Assembly (NCBI RefSeq): GCF_044704955.1
Contig: NC_091999.1
Span: forward strand, 10,664,001-10,728,000
Source: Pristiophorus japonicus
Taxonomy: Eukaryota
Direction: 5' to 3'
Length of the DNA: 64,000 nucleotides
In this document: positions 6,280 through 57,049 of the stretch, one piece after another
How the letters are laid out: every line of letters starts with the position of its first letter
Numbering within the stretch: the first letter of the stretch is position 1
Position numbers and translations under genes: made by a program
The notes under the pieces: generated by a model
What the model was told of the DNA's origin: nothing
Database searches by the model: none
The model's input: the letters and a program-made list of their open reading frames with translations, nothing else

Positions 6280-6541
6280 TTGTTAGTTATGGGCGGCGAG
6301 GCTGTGATCCATCAACCGCAGCAGATAGTTGCACGAGGGAGAATCGATTGACATCCAATGCAATGCGAGCAACAGCGGCTCTGATGGCAACGCCACTGAC
6401 GGACGATTCAAACTCTTCATTGACACAACAAGGAGTTCCAACATTTTCGGTATGGACAGCACCGTGGTCTCAGACGATGGAGTGTATTACTGAGCATTGA
6501 GGCACCGTGAAACTATAGCTGGGGGCTCCAGTACATTATCT
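6280..6541 (+). pseudogene. TCR V pseudogene (same family as 1-223), internal deletion
   Basis: EAVIHQPQQIVA start, WYRQ region deleted, YYC changed to TAT TAC TGA. RSS CACCGTG 6503-6509 / 23 / ACATTATCT 6533-6541. Confidence 0.85.
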
Positions 6542-7294
6542 CCTGCAGGTTCCTATCAGACAATCTTAATAACCTTTCTCCGCTTCCCAGAATGTGTTGA
6601 CAGCTTTGTGGTGTACAGTTCCATTCATCCGAGAAGGAAAGGACTGACCAGATTTTCCTTCAAGATGTTGATTATTTTGTGCTGTACATTTCCACAGGCT
6701 CTATTCATATTGCAAAGGGATGGTTACTCAGACTGACCTGAATCCTGTTACTTTTATTTTGCTACTGATTTCTGATCATGTTGTAATTCATTAAATTCAC
6801 ATAATTGATGGCTTTTATCGAATTTACCACATCCTTGTGTTCAAATCCCTCAAGACCCGCTGGCTTTCTATATCCCCTTATCTATTGCTTGTCAGTATTT
6901 CTCACAGTAAGTGAGCAGATGTTTTAATGGAAGACACCTGGAATGATAAAAAAGTAAATTATTTATCTCCCTTCACTGCTACTCCCTCACCTGCTAAAGT
7001 GCCAACATTGAGTTTAATTACCATCCAGTTCCATGTTGTGAGGAGAACAACTTCACTCCGTTCCGCGATGCTCGATGTGATGTATTGCGTTGGAGAAGAA
7101 AGGACCTGGGAGCTGATTCGTTGAATTCGAAAGCAAAGGACACGTGAGCTCATTGGATATCACCTGCTGACTCTGCCAGAAATGAACCAATCAGCAAAGA
7201 CACCGGAAATGAATCAACATCTTCGTAACTCTTGACGAAAATAATTTCAGGTTCAACCCGTTCTGTTCAAATCTGCTATGTACTATCTGTAAAC

Positions 7295-7850
7295 ATGTTT
7301 GGTGTGACTTTTTACTCAGCCGTCACAGCTGCAGCTCTCTTAACTGGTAAAATTTAAAGCAACAGAATCTTCCTCTTCCAGGTGTCAGTGACAACCTTTT
7401 AACTGTGTTTTATCATTATTTGCAATGTATTTCGTCGCATGTTAGTTTAGTTACAATTAAATTATGATAATTAGTTAAAATTTTGTATTTATACATGTCT
7501 GCAGGGGGTAGTGGTGCAGACTCCGTCTCACAGCCGCCGGTTAGAGCGATGCAGTTTGAAGGAGATTCGGTGACAATTATTTATAGCTATTCTACCAATG
7601 CTGGTTCGAATTCCATACAACTGTACCGTCAGGACCGGGACAAAGGTCCCCAAATCCTAATCTGCAGTCCTTCCTATGGGGATGTTGTCAGAGCAGTGGG
7701 CACTGGGGCTCGATTTTCTGTATCTCTGGACAGATCGAAAAGTGAGGGGAACTTCACCATCGGCGGCCTGCGGCTGACTGATAGTGCGCTGTATTACTGC
7801 ACGCTGAAAGACACAGTGATAGGCACCAGAGGGTGCCTCGTGCAACAACC
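7295..7850 (+). CDS. TCR alpha/delta V ORF, non-canonical (no Cys23, no Trp41)
   Basis: Leader 7295-7346 MFGVTFYSAVTAAALLT splices in frame to exon 7505-7811 GGSGADSVSQPP..VTIIYSY..IQLYRQ..LTDSALYYCTLK. RSS CACAGTG 7812-7818 / 23 / GCAACAACC 7842-7850. Confidence 0.8.
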
Positions 7851-8279
7851 GTGCTGCAATCTGACATGGACAATGGAATAGTGGGCAAAGTGGGGAGATT
7901 GGGGGGATGTCAGAATTATCGCAGGAGAGTGTCGATGTAAACCAAACAAATAATTAGCTACCCATCTAACAATACAGAACTGCCATGAAGTTTATTATTT
8001 TAATCATAATAATCTTGCAGTTAATATCATAATAAATTGTCTGATTACACAATGCTTCCAATCTCTGTTCATGTCATTGACACATCAACTTTCAATCTTA
8101 GTGAAATGTATATAAAGCAAGATCTCAGTCAGTGTCAGAATCGCACTCAGATCTGCCACTCCAGTCGGCAGGAGATGAAATAAACAGAGGGGAATATTCC
8201 GTAACGATTTAAGAGACTACAGATGCGTCAAAAATCTTCAGAACAACGAGGTCTCTCCTGAAATGTGACCCCGTGAGAC

Positions 8280-8607
8280 TCAGTTTCCAACCTTAGCGGA
8301 TGGCCAGGGTGCTGATTGTACCAGAACGTATAATCTGCAGCACCACTGCTGGTTTTTAAGCTACAGATTAGTATGACATTACTTTCCTTTTCAACCATCA
8401 TTTCAGGAACGTGCTGTTGCACTTTGTATTGGTGGCTGCATACTGACATAAAATAATAGTAGTAGTAATCATCCTCATCATCATCACTTGACCAATAATA
8501 ACATCTGGGTTACAGCATTGAAGGGGAGACTGGAGTTTTAGCGGAAAATCTATAGTTACTGAGATGTGATTATAAATGAAGAGAAGAGTGCGAGACGGTT
8601 CCACATG
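8280..8607 (-). pseudogene. 3'-truncated V pseudogene (family B, as 41.2 kb)
   Basis: Leader ATGTGGAACCGT..; exon KVQQHVPEMMVEKESNVILICSLKTSS..FWYNQHPG then diverges; no RSS. Confidence 0.85.
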
Positions 8608-9112
8608 ATGATCATTGAGTCTGTAACTGCACAGTCCGGGAAATCCTCTGTCCGAGCAGATATATAGACAGGGCCGTACTGCACACCTGATCCAAACAAA
8701 GCCAAACAGGGAACAGTGGAAGCAATCTCTCCAATAGCACAGGCCTACAAAAGAGTGTCAGAAGGAGAGCAACAAATGGATTCTTGCGTGCAGCTGCCAC
8801 AGATAAAAAACTGAGTGAATTCAAGGCTTTGATTATCCACACAAACTGCGTGGCGCCACTCAGCTGCACTCGGAGTGCATGGGGCGGAAAGGGCGATGGT
8901 TGGCTCTGGAGGTCTGTGGTCTAACTGCTTCTGCTTACTGAGCAAGTGACAGGGAATAAAGAGAGTTGGGGGAAAGGAAGTACATTGTACAGCTTCAGCA
9001 ATAATGAGCAGCTTCAGTCTGTTCTAATTTGAAACACAATATCTGGCACATGTGTTTTATATATAATCAACAAACCCAAAATCCCCACAATGAGATTATT
9101 CTGAATAAATTA

Positions 9113-9205
9113 CGCCAACAGAAGGCGCCAATATCAAATATGGTCATTAGAGAGTCACGTGATGTAAACAACAATGGCAACAGCGATCCAATCTGAGTGA
9201 TGTCA
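9113..9205 (+). promoter_or_regulatory. V promoter: CTCF-like site, E-box, TCR decamer/CRE
   Basis: GCCAACAGAAGGCGCC at about 9114-9129; GTCACGTGA at about 9154; AGTGATGTCA 9196-9205 matches the TCR-V decamer AGTGAYRTCA, about 110 bp upstream of the ATG at 9314. Confidence 0.55.
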
Positions 9206-9313
9206 TAATGGGGTTGCCCGTGCAGTGCGCAGGTTGAACATTGGAACAGGCCCTGCCCGATTTACTTTTCACCTTCTCAATCTCTGCCTCGTTCAATTCA
9301 AAGTAAATGCGAC

Positions 9314-9862
9314 ATGTTGCTAATAATCCTGGTGAGTGTGTTGGACCGTAGGTATCGAATTATATTAAACAACATAGGTTAACAGATTGATGGAAAAAGC
9401 TTGTGCAGGGTCTCGGTGCAATTAGTAATCATAAATATTAACATGATGGTCAGCTGTGTAGATGGGAGAATAAACACACTGACTCAGATAGGCGCAAGTT
9501 TAGATCACTGCTGGTGAACTTCATGTTCTTTTACTGCCCAATCTTCAAAGACGGATTTTGTACAGATCCAGTACTTCAGACAATTCTCGTGTTAGCAGGG
9601 GCTTCGGTGAGGTTAGATTGTGAACGTATAACCCCGGATATTTACTACATGGAATTGTATTGGCAGATTCCGGAACAGCCTGGAAGCTGAATAATTAGCA
9701 AAGTAGCTGCTCTGAAGGGTGTTGAAGTCGCTGGTGAATGCTAACATCTCCAGAAAGTATGGTTAACTCAAGATGAGTGGTCTGAGTTGGGTGGACGGGG
9801 CGGCCCATTACTGTGCCGTGCGGCACTGCTTCTGATTAAAGCAAAGTCTTTGTACAAAAACC
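9314..9862 (+). pseudogene. TCR V pseudogene
   Basis: Leader ATGTTGCTAATAATC..; frameshifted exon ending CATTACTGTGCCGTGCGG. RSS CACTGCT 9824-9830 / 23 / ACAAAAACC 9854-9862. Confidence 0.8.
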
Positions 9863-10312: not shown

Positions 10313-10789
10313 GGCGTCCGGTTTAGTGTTCGACAGAATAAAGCAACATGGTGATGCTATGTTGATCCTTCTCGTTTGGTATTAAAGGGTACTCTGAGAA
10401 CAGGGGCAGGCATCACGTAATTGCAGACTGAGGGGCGCTTTCCAGGGACAGTGTTATAAATCACCCAGCACTCTGATAACCGCAGAGGTTATGAGCGATT
10501 AGCCCCGCCCCAACCCCGACCGCCATCTTGGGCCGGGCAGGTTTCTCGACGGTCTCTGCTAATCTTTGCGGCACAGTTTCACCGGACGACATGGGCTCTA
10601 TTCTATCTTCACCAACAACCCTTTTAAATAAAATTATATTTCCGATTCCCTAAGTTGCATTGAAAAAATAAGCAACTTTTCGATAGGAATATCTAACCGA
10701 TGGTGAGGGAGTATCCCGCGCAATTGTGCTGCTGGTAAATGGGATCTAATGAATTAATTGACTAACAGAATATTAACTCCGCCCCTACT

Positions 10790-11100: not shown

Positions 11101-12017
11101 TACTGTGGAAGAGAGAAAAAAGATGAAATATGTTTGGTCTACAATTACCTATCAGAAAATCTCCACATAAGCCCGATGCTGAGTAGCCAAATTGACGTTA
11201 TATACTCTCTAAAAGGGGGCTTGGATGCTTGGAGACATACGTTCTAATCCCCACCCACAATAATCATCTGTCATGTCTCAGGATGCTCTCACCGCACTTC
11301 CTTGTTTCCTCAGTCGTGCTGTGAGACCGATAGGTAAGGAGCTGCCTACCAGTGAATGGAAACACGCTCAACTGAGCCACAGTCAGTGTCCTAAGAAGGC
11401 AATGGTTAAAATGTTTGAGACAGGGAGTGGGAATGAGCCCCTTGTCTCTTTGTTGCAAACCGGAAGCTGTGGAGAGCCCCTTGTCTGTTTGTTGCCAACC
11501 GGAAGCTGCGGGATTGTTATTGATGACAGAAAACATTCCAGAATTAAGGAGACTTTCTGAAGGGCGGTGGAGATTGGAGGAACTCTGTGCTTGGGGCTTG
11601 TTTGCAAGAGCGCAGTTATGACCTTGTGATATCTGATGATTTTGTATAAACAGACTGCGACTCAGTAACATACTCTGATCAGATAAAGTCTGTGTACAGG
11701 CCACGATCACTGGGTCCTGGAAACTAACAGAGGGGATGTTGAAACAGATGCACAATGCTGGAGACAGGTACCGAAAGAGCATCAAAGGATAAAGTGTAAA
11801 AACAGAAGTGGATTATAAGCTGATTTTTAGTATGAATACGAGTTTAAATCACTGAATAAAATTTTACAAGTGGACCTCACCTCTTCCTGTTCAGCGTTGT
11901 GCTTTGTCACTCTTTTAAGAAGGTCCCTGTGACTCTCACTGTGGAAGTTAAATTTTCGCTTCTGTTTATCCGTGTGAGGGCGCCCTCTGTTGAGCACTGA
12001 TTGGAATTCTTAGTATG

Positions 12018-12490
12018 AGTTTTTGTACGAGGTCCTCTATATCTCTGCAGCACTGTGGGCTCCATGGCACAGAAATAAACGGCGGCATCAGAGACAAGCG
12101 TCCCAGCGATATTTAAAGGAACTGTTTTATTCGTTTTGTTTATGTCAGCAGAGAACCTGTCTGGTAAACCTGGAGACTTGTCTCCGTCTCCTGAGCTATA
12201 TTTCTTCAGTAAATATTTCGGAGCTTCTCCGGGATATTGGATGTACCAGAACAGAGTTGAACCAGCTCTCGAGTAACTGCAGCTCAGGATTGTGTTCTGT
12301 CCTTCCTGAACCGTTAATTCAGGCGGATCCTGGAGCACCTTATCTTCGCCATTGATTCCTGTAACAAATGAGAGAATGTATCAAAACCTCTGCGCGTAAA
12401 TATAACCCATGGAACTAAAACTTGCCATTTAAACGTAGACTCACCAGGCAGCACAAACATTATTATTAGGAAGAAACATGAGGAACACAT
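12018..12490 (-). CDS. Apparently functional TCR alpha/delta V gene (family A body, family B 3' end)
   Basis: Leader 12490-12445 MCSSCFFLIIMFVLP, GTGAGT donor, in frame with exon 12358-12058 GINGEDKVLQDPPELTVQEGQNTILSC..LFWYIQYPGEAPKYLL..DAAVYFCAME. RSS CACAGTG (12057-12051) / 24 / ACAAAAACT (12026-12018). Confidence 0.9.
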
Positions 12491-22939: not shown

Positions 22940-23383
22940 ATGAATGGAATGATAATTTTCACTTATTGATTTTAGGTGAGTGTCGGTGTGCTGAAAAGCA
23001 TTCGCTGTTACATTTATTTATTGTGTCTAATTTTCCACCTCCTTTGTATCTGCAGTTTTCGGTGGCGAAGCTGTGATTCACCGACCACAGCAGCTGTTTG
23101 CACAAGAGGGGGGATCGATTGAAATCCCGTGCAATGCAAGGACCAGCGGTTCTGATGATATATTATGGGAAAGCCAACTGCAGAACCGTAACCTGAATTG
23201 TATCATATCTACTATCCTGGCCAACTCCACTGATGTATGATTCAAATTCTTCATTGACGCAATAAGAAGTTAAGAAGTTATAATATTCTCGTTATGGACA
23301 GCAATGCGGTCTCATAGGCTGGAGTATATTAATGTGCAGTGAGGCACCGTGAGACAAAGGCTGGGCGCTCCAGTACAATATCT
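22940..23383 (+). pseudogene. TCR V pseudogene (paralogue of 6.3 kb and 1-223)
   Basis: Leader with GTGAGT donor at about 22976; exon with several stops. RSS CACCGTG 23345-23351 / 23 / ACAATATCT 23375-23383. Confidence 0.85.
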
Positions 23384-24166
23384 CCTGCAATTTCCTATCA
23401 GACAATCTTAGCGCGCTTCCATAGCTCTCCTTAATGTGTAGTCTCCTGTGTTGTGTACAGTTCCATTTATCTGGTAAGGAAAGGGTTAATCAGAACTTCT
23501 TGCAAGATGTTGACTCCTTCTTTCTGTACAGTTTGACAAGCTCTATTCATTCTGTAAGGGAAGGATTCATCACACTGACCTGAAGTCTATTAAATTTCGA
23601 CTGCTACTGATTTATGTGCATATTGTAATTAATTTCTCTCATATTATAGGTGACTGTTGTCGGATTTACCACATCCTTGTTTTCAAATCCCTCAGGACTG
23701 CAAGGCATTATATATCCCGCTGTCTATTGGCTATGGGTAGTTCTAATATTCAGTGAGCAATTTTTAATGGGTGTCGCCTACACTGATACCAGAAGAGCAT
23801 TAATTATTTCGCTTCACTGCCTATATCTCACCAGTTACAGGGCCGACATTGGGTTTAATTCCCGTCCAGTAGTCTGTTGTGAGAACAATTTCATTCCGTT
23901 TAGCGCTGCTCGCAGTCATGTACTTAAATGTAGAACAGGGGAACTGTGAGCCAATTGGATCAATTGGAGAACAAAGAAGCTGTGAACTGATTCGAGGAAT
24001 TGCAGAAAAAAGACCCGTACTCTGATTCGATATCACCTGCTGACACGGTCAGAATGAACCAATCGGCAAAGACACCTGATGTTAATCAACATCTTCCCAA
24101 CACTTGACTAAAACATTTTCAGGTTCAAACCGTTCTGTTCCAATGCGCAATCAACTCTCAGTAAAT

Positions 24167-24708
24167 ATGTTGGGTGTAACATGTTTATTCAATCGTCACA
24201 GCTGCAGCTCTCTTAATTGGTAAAGTTAACAAGTTACAAAATCTTCTTCCAGGTATGATTAAAATAATTATAACGTTGTTTACTCTCTATTTGCAATATA
24301 TTCCATCACGTAATGATTTAGTTACAACAAAGTGATGAAAAATGGTTGAAGTTCTGTATTACTAACTTTCTGCCGCTGTTAGTGGCACAGACACGATCTC
24401 GCAGTGGCTGGTGACAGTGACGCACTTTGAAGGAGATGCGGTGACAATTAATTACAGCTTTTCTTCCCATTCCTTACAGCTGTACAGCCAGGGCGGTGGA
24501 AAAGGAACCACAATCCTAATCTACCTCCCATCGGTCGGGGATGTTTTCAGAGCAGAAGGCGTGGCTGCTCGATTTTCACATCTCTCGATACTTCGCAACG
24601 TGAGGGGAATTTCACCATCAGCGACTTGGCTATTTGATAGCGTGGTGTATTACTGCGGATGGAAACTGACACAGGGGAAGGAACCAAAGGGAGCCTCATA
24701 TAAAACCG
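24167..24708 (+). pseudogene. V pseudogene, paralogue of the 7.3 kb V
   Basis: FEGDAVTINYSFS..LQLYSQ..DSVVYYCG with FR3 frameshifts and a mutated acceptor. RSS CACAGGG 24670-24676 / 23 / ATAAAACCG. Confidence 0.85.
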
Positions 24709-25139
24709 CTGCCGCAATGTGACAAGGTCAAGGGGACAGTGGGAAAAGTGGCGAGAAACCGGGACTGTCAGTACTTATCGCAGGAGAGTGTCCGTTCAAA
24801 TCAAACAAATGAGTAGCTATCCAGCTTTCAATACTAAACTGGAATAATGTTTATTATTAATAATAATCTTGCTATTACCATCATAATAAGTTGTTTGATA
24901 GACAATGCTTCCAATCCATGTTCATATCATGGGCACCTCAACTTTCAATCTTCGTGAAACAGATATAAAACCAGTTCTCATTCAGTGTCACAATCGCAAG
25001 TAGACCTCACGCTCCAATCGGCAGGAAAATAACTTAATGGTAAGGGGCAATTCAGGAATTAATTTAGAAATCATTTGAGGGATTCAAAAACATCAGAACA
25101 ACGCGGCCTCCCCTGAAATGTGACCCACAACCCAAATCC

Positions 25140-25442
25140 TGGCGGCTGCACGAGGTGCTGACGGTACCAGCACACATAACGTATCGCAGCACTTGCTTTC
25201 AAGGTTCGTGTTACATCACATTGCCTCTTCAACCGTCATTTCCAGAACTGGCGGTTCCACTGTGTCTTGGTGGTCTACTTCTGACATAAAATAATAGTAA
25301 TAGTGATTATCATCACTGTCTTCACTTGGTCAATATAACATCTAGGTTGCAGCAGTCTGGGGAGAATGGGTTTTTACTGGGAAGGAAATGATTACTGAGA
25401 AGTGATATAATGATGAGGAGTGGCGCGGGATGGTTCCGCATG
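25140..25442 (-). pseudogene. Truncated family-B V pseudogene (paralogue of 8.3 kb)
   Basis: Leader ATGCGGAACCAT..CTTCTCA|GTAAT; exon with GTGGAAC..GAAATGACGGTTGAAGAG..TGGTACCGTCAGCAC; same truncation flank as 8.25 kb. Confidence 0.8.
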
Positions 25443-26149
25443 ATCTTCCCTGAGTCTGATACACTGCAGTCTGGAAAATCCTCTTTCGGGACGGAAATAC
25501 AGAACCCCACTCCACTGTACTTCTGATCCAAACAATGGCGAAGAGGGAGCAGTGGTTAAATCACTCCAATAACATAAGGCGGATTGGAGCAAGAGCAGCA
25601 AACGGAAGCTGTGGGTGGGGCAGCCGGAGACACATAATTGAGTGAATTCAACTCTCTGTGTAACCGCAGAGAATACGCAGTGCCAATCAACTGAAATCGA
25701 GGCTGATGTAATGGAAAGGGTGTTGGCGTCGTGGAGAAGTCTGTGGCCAAACTGGTCCTGCTCACTGAGCAATTGACTGGAAATAAATAGAGTGGGAGGG
25801 ACAAGAAATGTTTGCACAGCTTCAGATATATTCCTGGTTGAACCAGCTCAAATCTTGAGTTTGGAGACGCAACATCTGGCATAGGTCTTTTATATATGAT
25901 CCATAAAACATAAATCCCCTCAACGGCGTTATTTTAAATCTAATTGAACAAAATCCGCCAGCAGACGGTGCCAAACTCAAGTGTGGGAATTGGAAAGTCA
26001 CGTGATGCAAACATCAAAGCCAACAATGACCGCAGGCAAAGGAAGTCACAAATGAGTCGCCCCCTGCAGCGTGTGGGTGGAACGGTGAGCTGGACAGGCC
26101 GCGGGTTACCTCTGTCCCTCTCAAACTCTGCCTGATTCAATTCCAAGTT

Positions 26150-26690
26150 ACTGCGAGTGATTCAATCAGACTTATTTCTCATAATACAGGCGGCTGTACA
26201 GTAAGTACTGAATTATTTGAAAAACCCATGTTAGCAGACTGATGCAAAGAATTTGGGCAGGCAATCTGAACTCTCCATACAATGAATAGCTGGGTTTATG
26301 GGAGGTTACATACACACAGATAGACACAAGTTGTAATCGATACTGTGTAAGCTCATGTTCTACTGTTCTCCTGTCTTCACAGGCGATTATGTGCGAATCC
26401 AGTAGCTAAGTCTCCGGTGACAATAGAGATGTTAGCATGGTGTTCGCTGCAGTAAGATTGCGAATATACAACACCGGATATTAACATCGTGCAATGTGTC
26501 GTCAGAAACCGGTAGAGGCTCAAAGCTCAATAATTAGAAAATATCCACACTAATGGGAGGCGAAATATCAGGACAATATTAGGTGGCTGCAAGCAAGTGT
26601 AGAAAGAACATTTACCTAAGTGTGCAAGACGGGCGGTCAATCACTGTGCAGTGAAGTACAGCGTCAAAAGGCCCCGGACATAAATTTCAG
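26150..26690 (+). pseudogene. Degraded V pseudogene (paralogue of 9.3 kb)
   Basis: Intron and exon homologous to 9.3-9.85 kb; ends CACTGTGCAGTGAAG plus a degenerate RSS (TACAGCG..ACATAAATT). Confidence 0.7.
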
Positions 26691-28875: not shown

Positions 28876-28893
28876 CGGCCACCAGATGGCGCT
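28876..28893 (+). promoter_or_regulatory. Strong CTCF-like motif
   Basis: CGGCCACCAGATGGCGCT. Confidence 0.65.
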
Positions 28894-30209
28894 GACTGAT
28901 CATTTTTTCCCACGTGGGTCACGTTTCATCAAAACATGCAGACTGATTTGTTTTTGATAAAAATTAATGGGGAATTCCTCCTCCCATCTCAGATTTATGG
29001 TCACTTATATTATATTTTCCATTACAGTTGAACAGTTGCACACATTACTTGACTGTAAATGAGCTTGTCAACTTAAGTTGATAGTTTCTATCAATAAATT
29101 TCTCATTATTAATTACAATTCAGAATGCATTGGTCTTGTGTTATATTATCCAACATCTGATTTCACCCACAAAATAGAAACCCAACTCAGAGATGAAGTT
29201 GTTTGTAGCTAAAATAATAACTCTGGAAATCCTTGCTCGAGCCTGGAAATAACACAGTTCTTTTCGAGAAGTGGAGTTATGTTGATCCTAAAGGGTACAG
29301 TATTATTGAAGTAATTTACTTACAAATATATTGTCTGTGTTGTACAGCTGAATGCTGCAATTAAACAAATGGCGTGAACAGACATTAAATCAGTTTGACC
29401 CTGTCAATGTGAACATCCCTTGTAGTGTGAATCTAGAGACTGGCGAATATCCCACCGGTTCTCCGCTGCATTCCTTGTGCATGTGGGGCATTTTTCCGCT
29501 CTCTTTTAAATTCACCGCCAGCTATTTAAACACCATGCATTAAGTATTCATGTTCTTCATTGTCCCTTCTCATGTACAATACTTTACACTTTTCTTGATT
29601 AAGTTACATCTGCCATAATTGTCTTTATTTTTCCTGTCTCGCATGGGTGAGCCCATTCATCGGGACCGCTAATGTTAATTTCTCTCCATGTATTCCGCAG
29701 CCCCCGCTGCCTGATCAGCGAATCTGTCTGACACACGGACCACCCCAGTCACCACCAGAAATGGAGACGCTTCGATCCCTTCTGTCTGGGCCGGTTTGAA
29801 CACAGAATACCACAGCATGATCGGATTGCTCTGGACCCATTGCCAGGACACACCATAGTGAACAGACACCAATCGCTTCTGACATTTACAAAGTTACACC
29901 AGACTAAATATCGGGTGCGTCGGTGAGAAACACATCAGCCATTTAGTTATTGGATACAGAAGAGCCACGCTATAAGCAGCAGACACGTTTGCCAGTCGCT
30001 GGCAAAAATATAACATCGGTTATCGATCTTACCAAACATACAGACAGATTTTCAGACAATCGATAGCGCTGGAATTTTCAGAACCAATATCTTGCAATAC
30101 AATACGTCCAATCGGGACATTCAGATTATTATTTCCTTGTAAGTATTCTGACTTAAGAAGACTGGATTGGAAAATAAACCTGTTGAACTTGCTGCGTGTT
30201 TGTCTATAT

Positions 30210-32279: not shown

Positions 32280-33191
32280 NNNNNNNNNNNNNNNNNNNNN
32301 NNNNNNNNNNNNNNNNNNNNNNNNNNNNNNNNNNNNNNNNNNNNNNNNNNNNNNNNNNNNNNNNNNNNNNNNNNNNNNNNNNNNNNNNNNNNNNNNNNNN
32401 NNNNNNNNNNNNNNNNNNNNNNNNNNNNNNNNNNNNNNNNNNNNNNNNNNNNNNNNNNNNNNNNNNNNNNNNNNNNNNNNNNNNNNNNNNNNNNNNNNNN
32501 NNNNNNNNNNNNNNNNNNNNNNNNNNNNNNNNNNNNNNNNNNNNNNNNNNNNNNNNNNNNNNNNNNNNNNNNNNNNNNNNNNNNNNNNNNNNNNNNNNNN
32601 NNNNNNNNNNNNNNNNNNNNNNNNNNNNNNNNNNNNNNNNNNNNNNNNNNNNNNNNNNNNNNNNNNNNNNNNNNNNNNNNNNNNNNNNNNNNNNNNNNNN
32701 NNNNNNNNNNNNNNNNNNNNNNNNNNNNNNNNNNNNNNNNNNNNNNNNNNNNNNNNNNNNNNNNNNNNNNNNNNNNNNNNNNNNNNNNNNNNNNNNNNNN
32801 NNNNNNNNNNNNNNNNNNNNNNNNNNNNNNNNNNNNNNNNNNNNNNNNNNNNNNNNNNNNNNNNNNNNNNNNNNNNNNNNNNNNNNNNNNNNNNNNNNNN
32901 NNNNNNNNNNNNNNNNNNNNNNNNNNNNNNNNNNNNNNNNNNNNNNNNNNNNNNNNNNNNNNNNNNNNNNNNNNNNNNNNNNNNNNNNNNNNNNNNNNNN
33001 NNNNNNNNNNNNNNNNNNNNNNNNNNNNNNNNNNNNNNNNNNNNNNNNNNNNNNNNNNNNNNNNNNNNNNNNNNNNNNNNNNNNNNNNNNNNNNNNNNNN
33101 NNNNNNNNNNNNNNNNNNNNNNNNNNNNNNNNNNNNNNNNNNNNNNNNNNNNNNNNNNNNNNNNNNNNNNNNNNNNNNNNNNNNNNNNNNN
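32280..33191. other. Assembly gap
   Basis: Run of N. Confidence 1.
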
Positions 33192-37059: not shown

Positions 37060-39910
37060 AAACTAATGGGACTAAATGTGGATAGGTCCCCTTCACCCCA
37101 ATGCTCTGCATCCTACGTTCTAAAGGGGGTGGCTGCAAAGATACTGGATCCAAGGCTTGTAATCTACCAAAATTCCCTGGATTCTGGCGAGGCCCAAATG
37201 CCCTTGAAAACCGCAAATGTGATGTCCCTATTTAAGAAAGGAGAGACACAGAAAGCAAGATACTATATCCCAGTTGCCTAATATCTGTCATTGGGAAAAT
37301 GCTGCAGTCCATCATTGAGGACCGAGTAGCAGGTCCTTTCGAAAATCAGAATGCAGACAAGCAGAGGCAGCATGGTTTCATGAAAGGGAAATCATGTTTG
37401 ACAAATTTGATTCAGTTCTTTGAGGAAGTAACGGGCAGGGTGGATATAGTGGATCTAGTCGATGTTGTGTTTTTGGATTTCCAGAAGTCATTCAATAAGA
37501 TGCCACATAAAGATTATTGTACAAGATAAGACCTCACGAGTTTGGGGGTAATATATTAGCGTTCATAGTGGATTGGATGACTAACAGAAAGTAGAGATTC
37601 AAGATAAACGGGTCATTTTCAGTTTGGCAAACATTAACAAGTGGGGTGCCAAATGGATCAGTGTTGGGACCTCATCTATTTACAATTTGTATTAATTACT
37701 TGGATGAAGGGACCGAGTGTCATACAACCAAATTTACTAATGATATAAACATATGTTTGAAAGCAAGATGTGTGGAGGATGCAAATAATCTACAAATGAA
37801 TAGAGATAGGCTAATTAAGGTGACAACAATTTGACTAATTGAGTATATTTTGCAAAAATGTGAAGTTATCGAATTTGGTAGGAAAAATAAAAAGCTAATT
37901 ATTATTTTAAATTTGGAGAGATTACAAAATGCAATGCTACAGAGGTATCTGGGAGTCCTGGTACAGGAAACTCAAAAACGTTAGCATGCAGGTACAGCAT
38001 GTAATTAGGAAGGTAAGTGGAATGTTAGCCTTTATTGTAAGGGGGATAGAATATAAAAGCAGAGAACTCCTGCTACAAATGTACAGTGTATTGGGGAGAC
38101 CACACCTGGTGCATTGCGAACAGTTTGGTCACCTTATTTAAGGAAAGGTACACTGGCATTGGAGACAGTACAGAGATGTTACAGGAGATTGATTCCTGAG
38201 ATGAAGAGGTTGTCTTATGAAGAAAAATTGAGCAGGTTGGGCATGTACTTATTGGAGTTGCGAAGACAGAGATGGTCCGTGGAAACGTATACGACTATGA
38301 GGGGGCTTATCACGGGACATGAAGGGTGGATATTTCCCCTAGTGCCGGTATCTAGAACTCGGGAGCATAGTTTCAGAATAAGGGGTCGCCCATTTAAACA
38401 TAGAAACATAGAAACATAGACAATAGGCGCAGGATTAAGCCATTAGGCCCTTCGAGCCTGCACCACCATTCAATATGATCATGGCTGATCATGCAACTTT
38501 ACTACCCCATTCCTGCTTTCTCTCCATACCATTGTTCCCTTTGGCCTCAAGGGCCACATCTAAAACCCTTTTGAATATATACAACGTACTGGCCTCAACA
38601 ACATTCTGTGGTAGAGAATTCCACTGGTTCAGAATTCTCTGAGTGAAGAAGTTTCTCCTCATCTCGGTCCTAATTGGCTTACCCCTTATCCTGAGACTTT
38701 GACCCCTGGTTCTGGACTTCTCCCACATCGCAACATTCTTCTTGCATCTAACCTGTCCAATCCCGTCAGAATTTTAAATGTTTCTATGAGATCCCCTCCC
38801 ATTCTTCTCAATTCCAGTGAATATAAGCCTCGTCGATGCAGTCTTTCTTCAAATGTCAGTCCTGCCATCCGGGCATCAGTCTCGTGAACATTCGCTGCAC
38901 TCCCTCAATAGCAAGAATGTCCTTCCTCAGATGATAATAACATAGCTGTGCACAATATTCAAGGTGTGGCCTCACCAAGGCCCTGTACAACTGCAGTCAA
39001 ACCCCCCTTCTCCGATACTCAAATCCTCTCGTATGAAGGGCAACATGCCATTTGCCTTCTTCACCGCCTACTGTACCTGCATGCCAAATTTCAATGAATG
39101 ATATACCATGACACCCAGGTCTCATTGCACCTCCCTTTTTCCTAATCTGTCACCATTCGGATAATATTCTGCCTTCCTGTTTTTGCCACCCAAGTGGATA
39201 ACCTCACATTTATCTACATTATACTGCATCTGCCATGCATTTGCCCACTCACCTAAACTGTCCAAGTCACCTTGCAGCCTCTGAGCATGCTCCTCACAAC
39301 TCACACTACCACTCAGATTAGTGTCATCTGCAAACTTGTAGATATTACATTCAATTCCTTCCACTAAATCATTAATGCATATTGGGAATAGCTGGGGTCC
39401 CAGCACTGAAACTTGCGGCACCCCACTAGTCACTGCCTGCCATTCTGAAAAGGACCCATTTATTCCTACCCTTTGCTTCCTTTCTGCCAACAAGCACTCT
39501 ATTCACGTCAATACATTACCCCCAATACCATGTGCTTTCATTTAGCAAACTAACCTCTTGTAATGGACCTTGAAAAAGCCTTTTGAAAGTCCAAATACAC
39601 GACCTCCACCGATTCTCCCTTGTCCACTCTACTAGTTAAATCGAAAATAAGGAGTAATTTCTCCTCTCAGATGGTCTTGAATCTTTGGGTTTCTCTTCCT
39701 CAGAGAGCTGTGAAGTCTCGTTCATTGGATATAATTAAGGTGGAATATACAGATTTCTGAACGATCAGGGAGTCAAAGATTATGGGGACCGGGCGAGGAA
39801 CTGGGGTTGAGGACAGAATCAGATCAGCCATGATCTTTTTGAATGGCGAAGCAGGCTCGAGAAGCCAAATGGACTACTCCTGCTCCTATTTCTTATTTTC
39901 TTATGTTTTA
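37060..39910 (+). mobile_element. CR1 (+) interrupted by a younger CR1 (-) at about 38398-39634
   Basis: QHGFMKGKSCLTNL, FLDFQKSF (+); inner copy YKFADDT, GVPQVSVLGP (-) with an (ACATAGAA)n tail at 38398; outer 3' UTR resumes 39640-39910. Confidence 0.92.
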
Positions 39911-40489
39911 TGTTTTCCTTTCTTATTAATTCTCGTGAGGTCGCTGAGGATCCCAGAATTTATTGGCCATTCCCCAGGTTCCCCTTGATAAGCTGATGGC
40001 CGTCATTTTTCTTGGACTGCTGTATTTCTGCTCTTTGCACCCGTTTGATACCATTGACTGGCTTACTGGGCCACTTCACCGAACAGTCAAGAGGCAACCA
40101 TGTTGTGTATGGCACCGGAGTCCCAGAAGGGACAGAGCCGGATAAGGTAGCAGTTTTCCTTCCCAATTAAGGAGATTAGTCATGCAGTTGCGGTTTTACC
40201 ACAATCCGAGTATCACGACCATATTTACCAATAACTACTTCTTATTTATTTGTAAAATATCTGAATTCAAATTTATAAACTAGCAGAGTCGAAGTTGAAC
40301 AATCGCACTCTAGATTATTAGCTCACACCTCGGGATTATTTGTTGAGTTACAGAACCAACATACAACTACACGCCTTAAAACGTCATTTTCTCTGCATCA
40401 ATCAGTCGATATGACAGTGTCAAGAGTATTATAAACAGAGAGTTGGTTTATTGCAGTCATAACTCAGACCGGTACTAATATAATGTAAA

Positions 40490-40850
40490 ACGAGATATTT
40501 AAGGAGAGACAGATGGAGAGGCATATATAGATTATCAGATTGAAATAAACAGAGGGGAAGAGAGTGAGAGATAATGAGAGAGTGAAAGAATGCGAGATTG
40601 AGACAGAGAGAGAGACAGAGCGAAGGACAGAGAGAGAGAGAGCGAGAGAGATACAGAAAAAGGGACATTGTGAGATACAGAGAGACAGACAGAGAGGGAA
40701 ATCGGCAGACACAGACACGGAGCCAATGAGATACATACAGTGAGAATCAGATGGAGACGAGAGACACAGAGATAGTGAAAGAGATAGACAGCGAAATATA
40801 GTGACAGGGAAAGGATCACAGCGAGAGAAACAGAGTGATCAGCTGAGGCA
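40490..40850 (+). repeat. AG-rich low-complexity tract (inverted copy at 56150-56490)
   Basis: GAGA/GACA-rich sequence. Confidence 0.85.
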
Positions 40851-41190
40851 AAGGTTTTACATCGTTAAACTAAAAAAAGGAAGAAGAAATATCAAATAAT
40901 TATGGATAACGACTGGAGATAAGGCATGAGATGGGACAGGCATGCATGGAAACGGCATTGAAAGAAAATTTGTAACAGATGCCTTTGAACAGTGTCTTTC
41001 TATTTTAAATGTTCTTTAAAATCACCAGCTCATATAATTACACCGGTGAACGTCACCGGTTCTTGTTAGCATTTTGCTTTATTTGAGTTTTAAGAAAGCC
41101 CCTGTGAATCTCACTGTGGGGGCTGATATATCGCTTCTGTTTAGCAGTTTGAGAGCGCCCTCTGGTGAGCACTGTGGAACTCCCAGTGTG

Positions 41191-41677
41191 GGTTTTTGTA
41201 CGGGATCCGCTATATCTCTGCACCAGTGTGGGGCTCATGGCACAGAAATACACGGCGGTGTCTGAGATCAAGGCCTTGCTGATCGTTAGCTCAGTAATCT
41301 TAGTCGTTTTATGAAACGCAGAAGAGAATCGGTCACTGAAGTTGGGGTTTCGCTTTACTGCCGTTCCAATAAGGTAAAACACGTACTGTGGGGGCTGCCC
41401 CGGGTGCTGACTGTACCAGAACACAGAAGGGCTAGGTTCGCTGGTTTTCAAGGTGCAGTTTAGTGTTACATTACTTGCCTCTTCAACCATCATTTCGAAA
41501 ACCGACTGTTGCACTGTGCCTTGTTGGCTCCATTCTAAAATAAAATAAGAGCAATTGTAATCATCGCATTATCACTTTACCAATAATAACATCAGGGGCA
41601 GAATTATTATTTTTACAACGTAAATACTTACTGAGAAGTGTTATAATGATGAGGAGCAGTGCGTGACGGTTCCACAT
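41191..41677 (-). CDS. Apparently functional TCR alpha/delta V gene (family B)
   Basis: Leader 41677-41632 MWNRHALLLIIITLL|GTAAGT, in frame with exon 41534-41231 KWSQQGTVQQSVFEM..VTLNC..VFWYSQHPGQPPQYV..DTAVYFCAMSP. RSS CACACTG (41230-41224) / 24 / ACAAAAACC (41199-41191). Confidence 0.9.
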
Positions 41678-42290
41678 GATGCTCCCTGAGTCTCTAACTC
41701 TGCAGTCCTGGAAAGTCTCTGTCGGAACAGCAACACAGATCCCTGCTGCACTGCACTGCTGGTCCAACCAATGTGAAGCGGGAACAGCGACAGCGATCTC
41801 TACAATTACACAGGGCAGGCAAGGCGGGGCAGAGCGAGAGCAGCAAACGGAAGCAGTGGGCGTCGCTGTCACCATCAGTGTTTTCATACGTGGGATTCAT
41901 CTGTGAGAACAGAATTCAGAACAATGTTTCCTTGGTAAATTATACAACTCTTCCTCTCGAGAAGAGCTGCGTTAATTTCACATTTATTACAAACTCGGGG
42001 CAAGAAGATTGACAACACGAATTGCAAAATGATTACATTATTCGACAGTTACCGAAATTTTCATCAGTGAAGTAGGTTAAAACTAGGTGCTGAAATAAGC
42101 GATGGGAAAGAGAACAAAACTGTAAGGAAAAATATAACATTAATGAGCTGAAATGTGAAATCAAAAGGAATTTCATCCAATTTATATTGAATAATAGAAT
42201 TGCGGATTGACCACTGCCCTTTGACTGAACTGGCCGTTTTCGGAATCGATTTGACTATTACCCAATCTATTCAGACTTTGATCAGTGAGG

Positions 42291-42610
42291 AGAAGTTGTA
42301 CGAGAGAGGGTTTTCCCCCAAACTGTGGCCCCTAGCACAGCAATAGGTTTCGGTATCCACAAACTCTGCCTGGCCGAAGCCCAGTGTGCTCAGACTTTGA
42401 TCCCGGTTGGTACAGAACTTAAATCGGATTGGTGGCATTCTGCTTTAAATCCACAATGGATGTATCTCGGGGCCGCACTCACCAGTCGGCTATACCAACA
42501 GATGTTGTCGGTCGTGCGGAACCCGCCCAGGATTCTGACAGGATTTCCTTCCGCTGCGAAGTCTCAGGCAGGTAGAGAAATCTGGACCAAACTCGGTGCA
42601 ACTTTCGACA
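42291..42610 (-). pseudogene. V pseudogene (inverted copy of 54.4 kb)
   Basis: EGNPVRILGGFRTTDNICWYSR..YCCAR with frameshift. CACAGTT / 21 / ACAACTTCT. Confidence 0.78.
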
Positions 42611-42769
42611 AAATTTAAGAATTACATGGAATGTACAGCACAGAAACAGCTCATAGAGTCAGTGGATAATTGGGAAATAGAGAAGAGAAAGATTTAAAGA
42701 AAGTGAGTAGGAGCAGATTTCGAAACATAAGGTAGAGGAATAGAAAGTGAAAGTGCGAAAGAAAGAATG

Positions 42770-44780: not shown

Positions 44781-45457
44781 ACTAAACTTTTTAATAATCC
44801 TGTGCTTCAGAAACTAGGAATGGGTTTCATTCCTGCTCCGGACTCTAAATGTGGAACCATTCTCCTATAAGAACGTAGACTACAGCCCAGCTTGGATTTT
44901 CAGAAATGCTGGATTTATGCTGTTAATGTTGTGAGGCGCAGTTCCAGAGCCTCCATACATTCTTTAAAATAAGAGTTAATCAGACTGCACTGAATCGGAT
45001 GACTTCTCTGTGGGCTGCAGATACAGAGGTTCCATTAATTCTGAAAGGAAAGGGTCAGTCAGAGCATCCTGAATGGGTTGAATCCTCGGTAGGGTAAAGA
45101 TCCAGAAGCTCCACCCATTCTATTTGGAAAGGTTTATCTAGATATTAACTTGGTTATAAACACCCAACGCCAGGAATGTCGCTTCCGAAATTCACTGTCA
45201 CAAAGGAATGGTGTTCACCTCATTTCCCTCCACAAGGAGAGAAACTTCCTGGCCATGAGGTCACAGGCATTTCCGGATGTGAACCGCGGGTGGACAAAGT
45301 CCATTTCCAGCCAATCCAAGAGCAGCAAACACACGTGACTGAGATTTAATAGCGCGTCGCTGACCTCAATCAGCTGCCTGTTCAATATTTTCACTCGGTT
45401 CGGGGTCTTCTGATGCGAGCTTTGTGCCGTTTTCCTCTTGACATTATAATTGCCAAG

Positions 45458-45925
45458 ATGTATTACTTGGTATAAATAAATTTATTGCCCGTTATTCAGC
45501 TGCTGCTCACATGTAGGTACAGGGGCTGAGCTCAATAGCCCGCAGTGTTTTTTATTCGCGTTGTTCCAGTTTTTTATTATCTGAAAGTTTTTACTGGTCA
45601 ACGTCTCTCGGAACGAGTATTGCAATCTCCGGCTGCGATAACATTTGGGAACAGAGATTTGGTGCAGATAACTTGCAGCTATGTCACGTCCATCATTTAC
45701 TCCATGCACTGGTACAAACAGAAATCTAGTCAGGGACTCGAGTGGGTAATAATGCAAGCATCGGATGGCAAAGGGAGCAGGGCCCAGTTTTTAGTGGATC
45801 GTTCTGCAGTGCACACATGCGGCCAATTGGACTTTGAGAACTCGGAGAGTGGGGATACCGCTGTGTATTACTGTGCGATAGGGTCACAAACTGAGAGGAA
45901 ATGCAGCAGTCATTGTACAAAAACC
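45458..45925 (+). pseudogene. VH-like V pseudogene (paralogue of 738-1202); V exon open
   Basis: Leader has TAA, acceptor is ACTG, heptamer CAAACTG 45887-45893 / 23 / ACAAAAACC 45917-45925. Exon ERVLQSP..ITC..YSMHWYKQKSSQGLEWV..DTAVYYCAIG. Confidence 0.85.
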
Positions 45926-46471
45926 TCCATCCTGTTTACAGTCCCATAACAGCTGCAGCAATCTCTTCAGTAACATGGCGCAGGTAAAGTGGGTCAGAGC
46001 GAGAGCAGCAAACGGAAGCTGAGGGCGGGGCTACCGCAGGCGGTGTTGCCACAAGGCTTGTCTCTATAATTTCCAGTTGATTTCGGGTTTGATCAGAGAT
46101 ACTGACAGTCACAGCATAAAATATTGGTCTGTGGCAGCAGTCACTCAGTGAGTGCAGTCTTTGGTGTGAGGAAAGTTTTAGCATTGCTTAATTTTGGGAT
46201 TATATTCAGCAGTCAATCACTTTACTGAGTGTTGGTTTAGTTTATTCTGGTGTGTGACGACTCATCGAGAGCATTAGTTTCATTCTCCTGTGACATTCAT
46301 GTTTACACTTAAATATCCTCCTGCATTTCCCAACTCCAGTGATTCCTTTCTGTGTGCAGTTGCATTCACACAAACTGGTCCCCTTGCTCAGTGATAGAAA
46401 CCGAGGCCCGTACAGGCCGTTTTACATCTGCGTATCAGTCATCAGCCAGGTTCCCTCTATATTATCATTTC

Positions 46472-46906
46472 NNNNNNNNNNNNNNNNNNNNNNNNNNNNN
46501 NNNNNNNNNNNNNNNNNNNNNNNNNNNNNNNNNNNNNNNNNNNNNNNNNNNNNNNNNNNNNNNNNNNNNNNNNNNNNNNNNNNNNNNNNNNNNNNNNNNN
46601 NNNNNNNNNNNNNNNNNNNNNNNNNNNNNNNNNNNNNNNNNNNNNNNNNNNNNNNNNNNNNNNNNNNNNNNNNNNNNNNNNNNNNNNNNNNNNNNNNNNN
46701 NNNNNNNNNNNNNNNNNNNNNNNNNNNNNNNNNNNNNNNNNNNNNNNNNNNNNNNNNNNNNNNNNNNNNNNNNNNNNNNNNNNNNNNNNNNNNNNNNNNN
46801 NNNNNNNNNNNNNNNNNNNNNNNNNNNNNNNNNNNNNNNNNNNNNNNNNNNNNNNNNNNNNNNNNNNNNNNNNNNNNNNNNNNNNNNNNNNNNNNNNNNN
46901 NNNNNN
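46472..46906. other. Assembly gap
   Basis: Run of N. Confidence 1.
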
Positions 46907-52935: not shown

Positions 52936-53061
52936 TGATGTTGATTTTGTTTTCTCTTCCTTTTATGAATCTCCCTGTGAATCTGAGGGTGGAGAATTCT
53001 TGTTTCTGATTATCGGTCTGAGAGCGCCCTGTGGTGCGCAGCAACTCGAACTCTCAGTTTG

Positions 53062-53601
53062 TTTTCTTGTAGGGCTCCACGAAAATTCTGTAGCAGTGTG
53101 GGGCTCATGGCACAGAAATGCACGGCGGTGTCAGAGATCAGGGCTTTGACGATCATTAGCTCGGTATTCTTGGCAATTTTATTAAATGTAGAAGAGAATC
53201 GATCAGTGAAGGCAGGGTTCAGGTCTACATTCACTCCGATAAAATGAAGCACATACTGTGGAGGCTTCCCGGGGTGCTGAATGTACCAGAACACATAAGT
53301 TGCAGTATCGCTGGTTTTCAAAGTGCAAGTTAGTGCAATTACTTTCCTCATCAACCATCATTTTAGGGACCGGCTGTTCCACTTTGTCTTGTTGGCTCCA
53401 TTCTAACAGAAAAGAATAGAATGAATCATCATGATCATCATCATCTTCATCTCAATCAACATAATCATAATCGTCAATATCATTTTACCAATAATAATAC
53501 CTGAGTTACAGCAGTTAGAGGGAGAAATGATTTTTAATAGGTAGGAAATAATTACTTCGAAGTAATAAAACAATGAGCAGCGGAACAAGATGGTTCTGCA
53601 T
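53062..53601 (-). pseudogene. Family-B V pseudogene
   Basis: 2-nt deletion in FR1 before LTCTLKTS; VFWYIQHPGKPPQYV..DTAVHFCAMSP. CACACTG (53100-53094) / 23 / ACAAGAAAA. Confidence 0.88.
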
Positions 53602-55295: not shown

Positions 55296-55794
55296 ATGTG
55301 GAACCGTCTCGCACCGCTCCTCGTCATTATATTAGTTCTCAGTAAGCAGTTCCTTCGCAAAAATAATAATTCTGCCACTGATGTTATTTTTGTTTAAGTG
55401 ATAATGAACATGATAATGCGATGATGACAATTTCTATTATTTTATTTTCGAATGGAGCCAACAAGACACAGTGGAGCAGTCGGTTATCGAAATGATGGTT
55501 GAAGAGGAAAGTAATGTCACCTTAAATTGCACCTTGAAAACCAACAATCGAAGTCCTTCTGTGTTCTGGTACAGTCAGCACACCGGGCAGCCCTCACAGT
55601 CCGTGTCTTACCTTATTGGAGCGACAGTAAACCGAAACATCGACTTCACTGACCGATTCCATTCTGCGTTTCATAAAATGAGTAAGATTACCGAGCTAAC
55701 GATCAGCAAGGCCTTGATCTCAGACAACGCCTTTTATTTCTGTGCCATGAGCCACACACTTGTGCAGAGATGTTGCGGATCCCGTAAAAAACCC
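55296..55794 (+). pseudogene. Family-B V, open frame but dead splice acceptor and damaged RSS (inverted copy of 41.2 kb)
   Basis: Leader 55296-55341 intact; acceptor AG to CG at 55449-55450; exon ..TLNC..VFWYSQHTGQ..DNAFYFCAMSH. CACACTT 55755-55761 / 24 / AAAAAACCC. Confidence 0.85.
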
Positions 55795-57049
55795 ACACTG
55801 GGAGTTCCAGTCAGTGCTGACAATAGGGCGCTCTCACGCTGATAAACAGAAGTGATAATTCAGCCTCCACAGTGAGATTCAGAGGGACATTATTAAAAGT
55901 CAAATAAAACACAATTCTTACTAAGAACCGGTGAAGTTCACCGGTGGAATTATATTAGCTGATGACTTTAAAGCACATTTAAAATAGAAATGCACTGCGC
56001 AAAGGCATCTGTGGCACATTTTCTTTCAATCCCCTTTCCTTGCATGCCTGTCTCATGTCACCTCTTGTCTCCAGCCTTTATCCATAATTATTTGATATCT
56101 CTACTTCCTTTTTTTAGTTTAACGATGAAAAACCTTTGCTTCAGCTCATCTCTCTGTTTCAATTGCTGCTGTTATTTCTCTCTCACTCTATTTCACTGTC
56201 AAACTTTTTCACTGTTTCTGTGTCTCTCGTCTCCATCTAATTCTCGCTGTATGCATCTCATTGGCTCCGTGTCTGTGTCTACCGACCTCCCTCTCTGTCT
56301 GTCTCTGTGTCTCTCATCATGTCCCTTTTTCTGCATCTCTCTCGCTCCCTCTCATTGTTCTTCACTCTGTCTCTCTCTCTGTCTCAATCTCTCATTTTTT
56401 CACTCTCTGATTATCTCTCACTCTATTCCCCTCTGTTTATTTCAATCTGTTTCACTATCTATTTCTCTCCATCTGTCTCTCCCTAAATATCTCGTTTACA
56501 TTACATTAGTACCTTTCTGAGTTATGACTGCACTAAACCAAATCTCTGGTTATATTACTCTTGCCACTGTCATATCGTTTGTTTGAGGCAGATAAAATGA
56601 CGTTTTAAGGCTTGTAGTAGTGTTCTGGTTCTGCTAGTCAACAAATAATCTAGAGTGCACTAGTTCAACTTCTCCTATGGTAATTTAGAAATTTGAATTC
56701 AGATGTTTAACAAATAAACAAAAGCGGTTATCAGTAAAAGTGACCGTGAAACTCGGATTGTGATAAAACCCCAACTACGTTACTAACTACCTTAATTGGC
56801 AAGGAAAATGGCTGCCTTTTCTGGCTCTGTCCCTTATGGGACTCCGGTGCCATAGACAACGTGGTTGTCTCTTGAATGTTCGATGATCTGGCCCAGTAAC
56901 CCACTCAATTGTATCAAACGTGTGCAAAGAGCAGAAATGCAGTAGTCCAAGAAAAAGAACCACGATCAACTTAACAAGGGAAATCTGGGGAATGGGCAAT
57001 AAATCTTGTGCTCCTTAGCGACCGCACGAGAATTAATAAGAAAGGGAAA

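Follow-up and report, generated by a model that had tools for sequence, protein, structure and literature searches.

The window, by which we mean the whole 64-kb stretch of Pristiophorus japonicus DNA analysed here, holds an array of 18 V exons or relics, eight on the plus strand and ten on the minus strand, that sits between repeats which are probably LINE-like. The V segments are elasmobranch TCR alpha/delta V genes: they show a leader, an intron, a V-set exon and a 23-type RSS, and their relatives are annotated as TCR alpha. All nine exons scanned match Pfam V-set, and the solved-structure matches of one of them, V12k, include TCR alpha chains. The closest named relatives are Heterodontus francisci (horn shark) P0004 (76%, to V41k) and Chiloscyllium punctatum (bamboo shark) P0012 (63%), with a Scyliorhinus torazame protein named TCR alpha-like (55% identity) also among the closest. 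A homologue search with V12k gave no near-length match and one snake protein at longer length. Use as alpha or as delta is indistinguishable from genomic sequence (PMC10322711), and no J or C segments were seen within the 64-kb window. The array also contains old block duplications (70-74%) of multi-V cassettes (6388-9702 versus 23222-26541, and 280-1589 versus 45000-46309) and two assembly gaps (32280-33191 and 46472-46906, 1347 N in total), the first of which lies just behind V32k.

Four V segments, belonging to two exon families, A and B, carry a CTCF-like motif behind the RSS. Their features are listed below in gene order; all CTCF scores refer to a reconstruction of the JASPAR MA0139.1 count matrix, not to the database file.

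12058..12490, minus strand: V12k, intact TCR alpha/delta V gene with a family A exon (leader 12445-12490, V exon 12058-12358; spliced frame open; Pfam V-set)
12018..12057, minus strand: V12k RSS, with a consensus heptamer, a 24-bp spacer and a nonamer with one mismatch
11997..12017, minus strand: V12k linker, 21 bp, partly matching the upstream (ZF9-11) motif of CTCF sites
11978..11996, minus strand: CTCF-like core motif of V12k, gene-sense, 21 bp past the nonamer (14.2 bits, p 4.4e-6)
11858..11977, minus strand: homologous 3' flank of the V12k cassette, with the heptamer-like word CACAGTG about 35 bp past the motif
41231..41677, minus strand: V41k, intact TCR alpha/delta V gene with a family B exon (leader 41632-41677, V exon 41231-41534)
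41191..41230, minus strand: V41k RSS, with a heptamer with one mismatch, a 24-bp spacer and a consensus nonamer
41153..41171, minus strand: CTCF-like core motif of V41k, the best copy, 19 bp past the nonamer (18.2 bits, p 3.9e-7)
53062..53601, minus strand: V53k, family B pseudogene with an early V-exon frameshift, a 23-bp spacer and a decayed nonamer
53022..53040, minus strand: decayed motif of V53k, 21 bp past the nonamer (4.5 bits; near-invariant G10 gone)
55296..55793, plus strand: V55k, family B pseudogene, an inverted duplicate of V41k with the splice acceptor AG lost and the RSS decayed
55815..55833, plus strand: decayed motif of V55k, 21 bp past the nonamer (-6.2 bits; near-invariant C5 and G10 gone)

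V12k and V41k both have an ATG, a splice donor and acceptor, an open V frame and an RSS. V55k was derived from V41k by a 3.4-kb inverted duplication (39350-42769 versus 57611-54202, 85%), and in this single case acceptor, RSS quality and motif are all gone. Immediately behind both V1k and V45.7k is a remnant of a family B promoter in head-on orientation.

The original prediction was that four CTCF-like motifs lie about 20 bp 3' of the nonamer and that the best of them flank the intact genes. All four strings are in place, and a good score is found at both intact cassette genes and at neither of the two pseudogenes, although these numbers are small; the matches of V12k and V41k reach p<=4.4e-6 with the reconstructed matrix, and they differ by one or two mismatches from the consensus quoted in PMC6746451. 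Counted from the nonamer to the motif start in the frame of the 19-bp matrix, the gaps are 21 bp in V12k, V53k and V55k and 19 bp in V41k, where the linker has a 2-bp deletion. Every copy is in gene-sense orientation, both intact copies lying on the minus strand. At position 4, where C makes up 88% of the matrix, V53k has G and the other three copies have T, a point against the CTCF reading.

The four motifs are copies of one 3' cassette, composed of the V end, the RSS, a linker of 19-21 bp, the motif and its flank, which is homologous between the copies over about 250 bp at 73-78% identity, and they therefore count as one event and not as independent occurrences. The exons to which the cassette is joined are of two kinds. 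V12k, which shares 64% identity with V49k and 42% with V41k, combines a family A exon with a family B-like 3' end, being V49k-like above about 12090 and V41k-like below. The proposal that one shark TCR V family carries an IgH-style module stands, at the level of sequence, for the RSS-associated element itself, and has to be amended from one V family to two. Family A exons with the cassette also occur in skate, in Mustelus, in one further record and on several contigs of P. japonicus, whose unaligned ends show the motif as well. Contigs of run X6 do not cover V12k and those of run X7 cover just its flank, which carries no information on expression. The combination is therefore old, and the idea that V12k is a recent one-off chimera is weakened. 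Likely, 3' ends have been exchanged between V families. A recent conversion between V12k and V41k is not demonstrable from flank differences, which amount to 10 of 41 positions between these two and 15 of 43 between V12k and the horn shark. The exon tree supports the family B clade (94/98) and does not resolve family A, so that an old transfer and ancestral presence with losses are both plausible. A transposon-borne origin was considered and rejected: the cassette occurs only behind V exons in the window, and contig depth, a rough guide, is no greater on it than on the V exon.

The window as a whole is rich in CTCF motifs, with 13 sites at p<=1e-5 (eight on the plus strand, five on the minus) versus 2.1 in 40 shuffles. 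With 18 V segments, at least one such site no more than 60 bp from a nonamer would be expected by chance with a probability of about 0.2, and a single RSS-side placement is thus not significant by itself. Five to six of the strong sites are placed upstream of V exons or relics, at distances of 470-860 bp (9112, 22208, 25955, 28876, 31074 and 53861), and it is on this V-upstream side that the best site of the window is found (25.6 bits, 28876-28894); another two strong sites precede V45.7k and V49.4k by about 1.9-2.0 kb. A good site close to the best RSS (within 60 bp) is present on two of the 18 V segments or relics and on two of about five intact ones, and the 14 segments outside the cassette family reach a top RSS-side score of 1.3 bits, with the reservation that the RSS guesses for several relics are unreliable. 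V47k, V49k and probably V1k likewise look intact, yet have no RSS-side site.

This setting makes it conceivable, though we lean against it, that the motif is a real CTCF site but only one member of a larger set folding or insulating the V array, found on the RSS side for reasons of history and without favouring the adjacent V gene. The number of strong sites in both orientations, the upstream placement of several of them, which resembles mouse Tcra/d, and the lack of an RSS-side site on most V segments would all be expected of such general anchors. They need not, however, hold the gap at 21-22 bp between sharks and skate, as happens here despite a drifting linker sequence, nor need they decay along with their gene, as the site does in both pseudogenes. 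These last two features agree better with an element tied to its own RSS, the reading that we prefer.

Conservation was assessed among paralogues on contigs of one P. japonicus sample (31 in run X1 and 63 in run X3), aligned to 11925-12100 at 80% likeness, a filter that favours conserved copies. In 40 of the 50 aligned rows, variable positions number 2/19 in the motif, 10/21 in the linker, 9/23 downstream, 10/24 in the RSS spacer, 1/9 in the nonamer and 1/7 in the heptamer, which makes the motif about as constrained as the RSS itself. The difference between motif and flank (2/19 versus 29/68) has a Fisher p of 0.008 in these 40 rows, which would become 0.07 if two of the other ten rows varied at new motif positions. 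One of the two variable motif positions shows a change toward the consensus and the other is a degenerate end position. Linker insertions of 2 and 15 bp in two contigs indicate that the spacing is not absolute. Among the four window copies alone, motif conservation exceeds that of the flank modestly, with invariant columns at 13/19 positions in the motif, 11/21 in the linker and 21/40 and 24/40 downstream.

Other species can be compared because gene models often continue through the RSS, so that their translations cover the 3' flank. The 166 proteins fetched include 59 such read-throughs, from which six of elasmobranch type (P0004, P0012, P0022, P0155, P0030 and P0041), related to each other, were picked by eye for their likeness to the cassette; P0152 from Mustelus (linker present, motif absent), P0017 from bamboo shark (a family A model lacking the cassette) and four whose flank is not readable were left out. 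With scores taken as upper bounds, which is all that a peptide allows, horn shark P0004 (best case 18.7), P0155 (23.3) and bamboo shark P0012 (14.1) have their best compatible offset at 21, and P0030 has it at 22; a score of 14 at a fixed offset is reached by 0.1% of null peptides. In P0041 the homologous site is degraded and the best offset (12) lies elsewhere. Little skate P0022 matches the linker and the first motif codons and then ends, as a tolerated C-to-T change in the motif would explain. In other sharks, where the prediction had suggested checking orthologues, the cassette recurs with a 21-bp gap in the horn shark and bamboo shark read-throughs, and little skate shows it at the same gap as far as linker and motif start can be read.

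Differences from V12k that these peptides force are found at 3/34 high-information motif positions, 15/46 low-information positions and 73/172 flank positions (high-information versus flank, p 8e-5; versus low-information, p 0.01). With V41k/V55k as reference the corresponding counts are 3/34, 12/46 and 60/172 (p 0.001 and 0.045 for the same two contrasts), and without position 7, which is specific to V12k, the contrast between high- and low-information positions has p 0.07. Of the three changes from V12k at high-information positions, two remove G13 (in P0030 and P0041) and the third improves the match. A motif no more conserved than its surroundings would have spoken against the prediction; among paralogues (2/19 versus 29/68) as across species (3/34 versus 73/172), it is the more conserved part.

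These comparisons bear on whether the motif is a neutral passenger, that is, a string that resembles a CTCF site by chance, sits in a slowly evolving flank and has been copied along with V genes. The flank as a whole can indeed still be recognised in other sharks (forced differences of 28-35% from horn shark over 54 bp), one placement could arise by chance at the p of about 0.2 given above, and a key base is lost in two of the six foreign copies. A passenger of this kind is nevertheless unlikely in our view, as variation avoids the motif in paralogues and its high-information positions across species, and compatible stretches recur in other read-throughs more often than expected. When the 41 read-throughs with at least 28 offsets were scored (eight that were too short and ten with fewer offsets being dropped), eight reached a best case of 18, versus 0.4 expected from translated window DNA. 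The eight comprise the horn shark, four notothenioids and one Scortum with a gap of 31, Danionella (27) and Xiphophorus (15). The teleost TCR V models with a CTCF-compatible stretch, mostly 31 bp past the nonamer, are P0125, P0049, P0104, P0108, P0047, P0006 and P0142. This result is at peptide level, partly paralogous and measured against a shark null, which makes it a lead.

A conserved block might also be kept for another zinc-finger factor or for recombinase-related signals. In V41k the start of the motif falls within a perfect heptamer, and another heptamer-like word follows 35 bp further along; this downstream word (about 11937-11943, and behind V41k and V55k) is kept in three of the four copies and is compatible with the horn shark peptide, and the non-consensus T at position 4 is shared. 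The changes that do occur follow the CTCF matrix, with positions 3, 4, 7 and 8 moving to allowed or better bases, and no good nonamer lies 12 or 23 bp from either heptamer; we consider this explanation very improbable. A second functional RSS in the flank was rejected, the heptamer-like word being without a good nonamer. Judged by its sequence, the motif is a CTCF-like element associated with the RSS and conserved on some elasmobranch TCR alpha/delta V genes, and one that probably binds CTCF. Lamprey CTCF binds the mammalian motif (PMC5504073), and it is on these lamprey data that the expected specificity of shark CTCF rests; in Hox clusters, motif scans failed to predict real CTCF sites (PMC5504073).

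The closest counterpart is found in mouse Igh, where the distance from the nonamer to the RSS-proximal CTCF sites is 17-19 bp (PMC6746451). In this locus the RSS of several dozen proximal VH genes is followed immediately by a CTCF element, which promotes the use of these genes in cohesin-driven RAG scanning (bioRxiv 2020.01.01.891473). Mutation of the VH81X element lowers VH81X use, and repair of an element makes a pseudogene dominant (PMC7930373). VH genes beside CTCF sites are active in 31 of 34 cases, and their state follows clans 2 and 3 (PMC4914699). The shark elements resemble those of mouse proximal VH genes (7183 and Q52 families; VH81X-CBE) and of human IGHV clans II/III in having a single core motif at a fixed short gap 3' of the nonamer (PMC6746451, PMC4914699, PMC7930373). 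In both, the motif is conserved over the linker, as reported for mouse Igh (PMC6746451), is restricted to certain families, is intact on functional genes and decayed on pseudogenes, and is removed by recombination. The gap is 20-22 bp in shark, compared with 17-19 bp in mouse in the same 14-mer frame (PMC6746451) and 19 or 48 bp in human. In contrast to the VH elements, those in shark belong to TCR alpha/delta V genes, have T at position 4 and A at position 11, are known here from sequence, often follow an RSS with a 24-bp spacer, and lie in an array with V genes and sites on both strands.

A second relevant system is that of the mouse TCR loci. The prediction had contrasted the IgH layout with promoter-linked Tcra V sites, and this holds in the main, the mouse Tcra/d sites being mostly promoter-upstream or intergenic and in both orientations; the layout is not strictly IgH-only, since two mouse Tcrb sites are reported near the RSS (PMC5859386). 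The window is of the same locus type and likewise has many sites, in both orientations and often upstream of V genes, whereas the mouse Tcra/d sites are upstream or intergenic and not RSS-side, with only the two in Tcrb near an RSS (PMC5859386, Table 2). The linker may also hold a trace of the upstream half of two-part CTCF sites, as it partially matches the ZF9-11 motif at an allowed distance, 2-7 bp before the core (PMC12885311, PMC10484683, PMC5504073). With the upstream 10-mer taken from PMC12885311, V41k and V55k match at 7/10 positions and V12k at 5/10, with a background of 3% for 7/10. Unlike in two-part sites, only the 3' half of the upstream motif matches, and its positions vary among paralogues like the rest of the linker. 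A literature search on CTCF in cartilaginous and teleost fishes, at the level of titles and abstract starts, found no paper on RSS-side CTCF sites in fish TCR genes, and subscription papers and supplements with shark locus annotation may bear on this; no mention of CTCF was found in the available portions of PMC12227049 and PMC10322711.

In the model that we favour, the motif would be the conserved core of an old 3' cassette carried by a subset of elasmobranch TCR alpha/delta V genes. CTCF bound there would stall cohesin loop extrusion and open the chromatin beside the RSS, and RAG would likely pick cassette-bearing V genes more often, as with VH81X in mouse Igh. We put the probability that the element works in this way, favouring the adjacent V gene, at roughly 0.5; an effect on the adjacent RSS, and not on general locus folding, is what we infer. 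As it lies on the signal-end side, the element is removed from the V gene by recombination and could thus act only beforehand. Against a VH81X-like mode of action are the intact V47k and V49k, which do without a site, and the presence of V genes and strong sites on both strands, unlike the one-way Igh array that linear scanning needs. Since the V genes are oriented in both directions, the array as a whole cannot be explained by pure one-way scanning, and a stall that raises contact time, or local accessibility, would fit it better.

The RSS of the cassette might give the element an added role. A 24-bp spacer is common to V12k, V41k, V55k, horn shark P0004 and P0030, whereas V53k, bamboo shark, skate, P0155 and P0041 have 23 bp (as read from reading frames), as do the other clear V RSSs in the window, and the distribution of the two lengths cuts across the exon tree. 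No spacer indel is listed among the paralogue contigs in 40 of 50 rows, so that the 24-bp spacer seems general in the family in this species. As an exact phrase, a 24-bp spacer was not found in the literature search. The CTCF element could possibly offset this spacer, which is one base above the usual 23. A wider proposal, which we regard as rather doubtful, is that RSS-side CTCF elements were an ancestral jawed-vertebrate device for V choice, placed at 21 bp in shark and skate and at 31 bp in percomorph fish, in which a compatible motif lies one helical turn further out; mammalian VH clans II/III would have kept the device and mammalian Tcra lost it, and in sharks the cassette of RSS and CTCF element would have become portable between V families and would license RSSs with a 24-bp spacer.

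To our knowledge, mouse Igh is almost the only locus for which CTCF-guided RAG scanning has been established. If the shark sites work, local CTCF control of V choice would be at least as old as the split between sharks and skates and would apply to T-cell receptors. The paralogues with good, weak and dead sites form a natural series in which motif strength could be related to V usage, and the teleost read-throughs suggest small fish species as candidates for mutating the site. There is a hint that the V41k family rearranges: a contig of run X6, a different sample of unspecified library type, has 95-99% likeness to V41k up to the coding end, where it terminates in 12 non-germline letters.

Two further CTCF-like matches lie elsewhere in the window. 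A weak CTCF match at 10518-10536 (minus strand), upstream of the relic V10k, presumably resembles a YY1-type promoter motif more. The RSS spacer (23 bp) of V7.7k, a segment without the first cysteine, contains a CTCF-like site at 7820-7838 (plus strand; 13.6 bits, p 6e-6), and CTCF bound at this position would overlap the RAG footprint.
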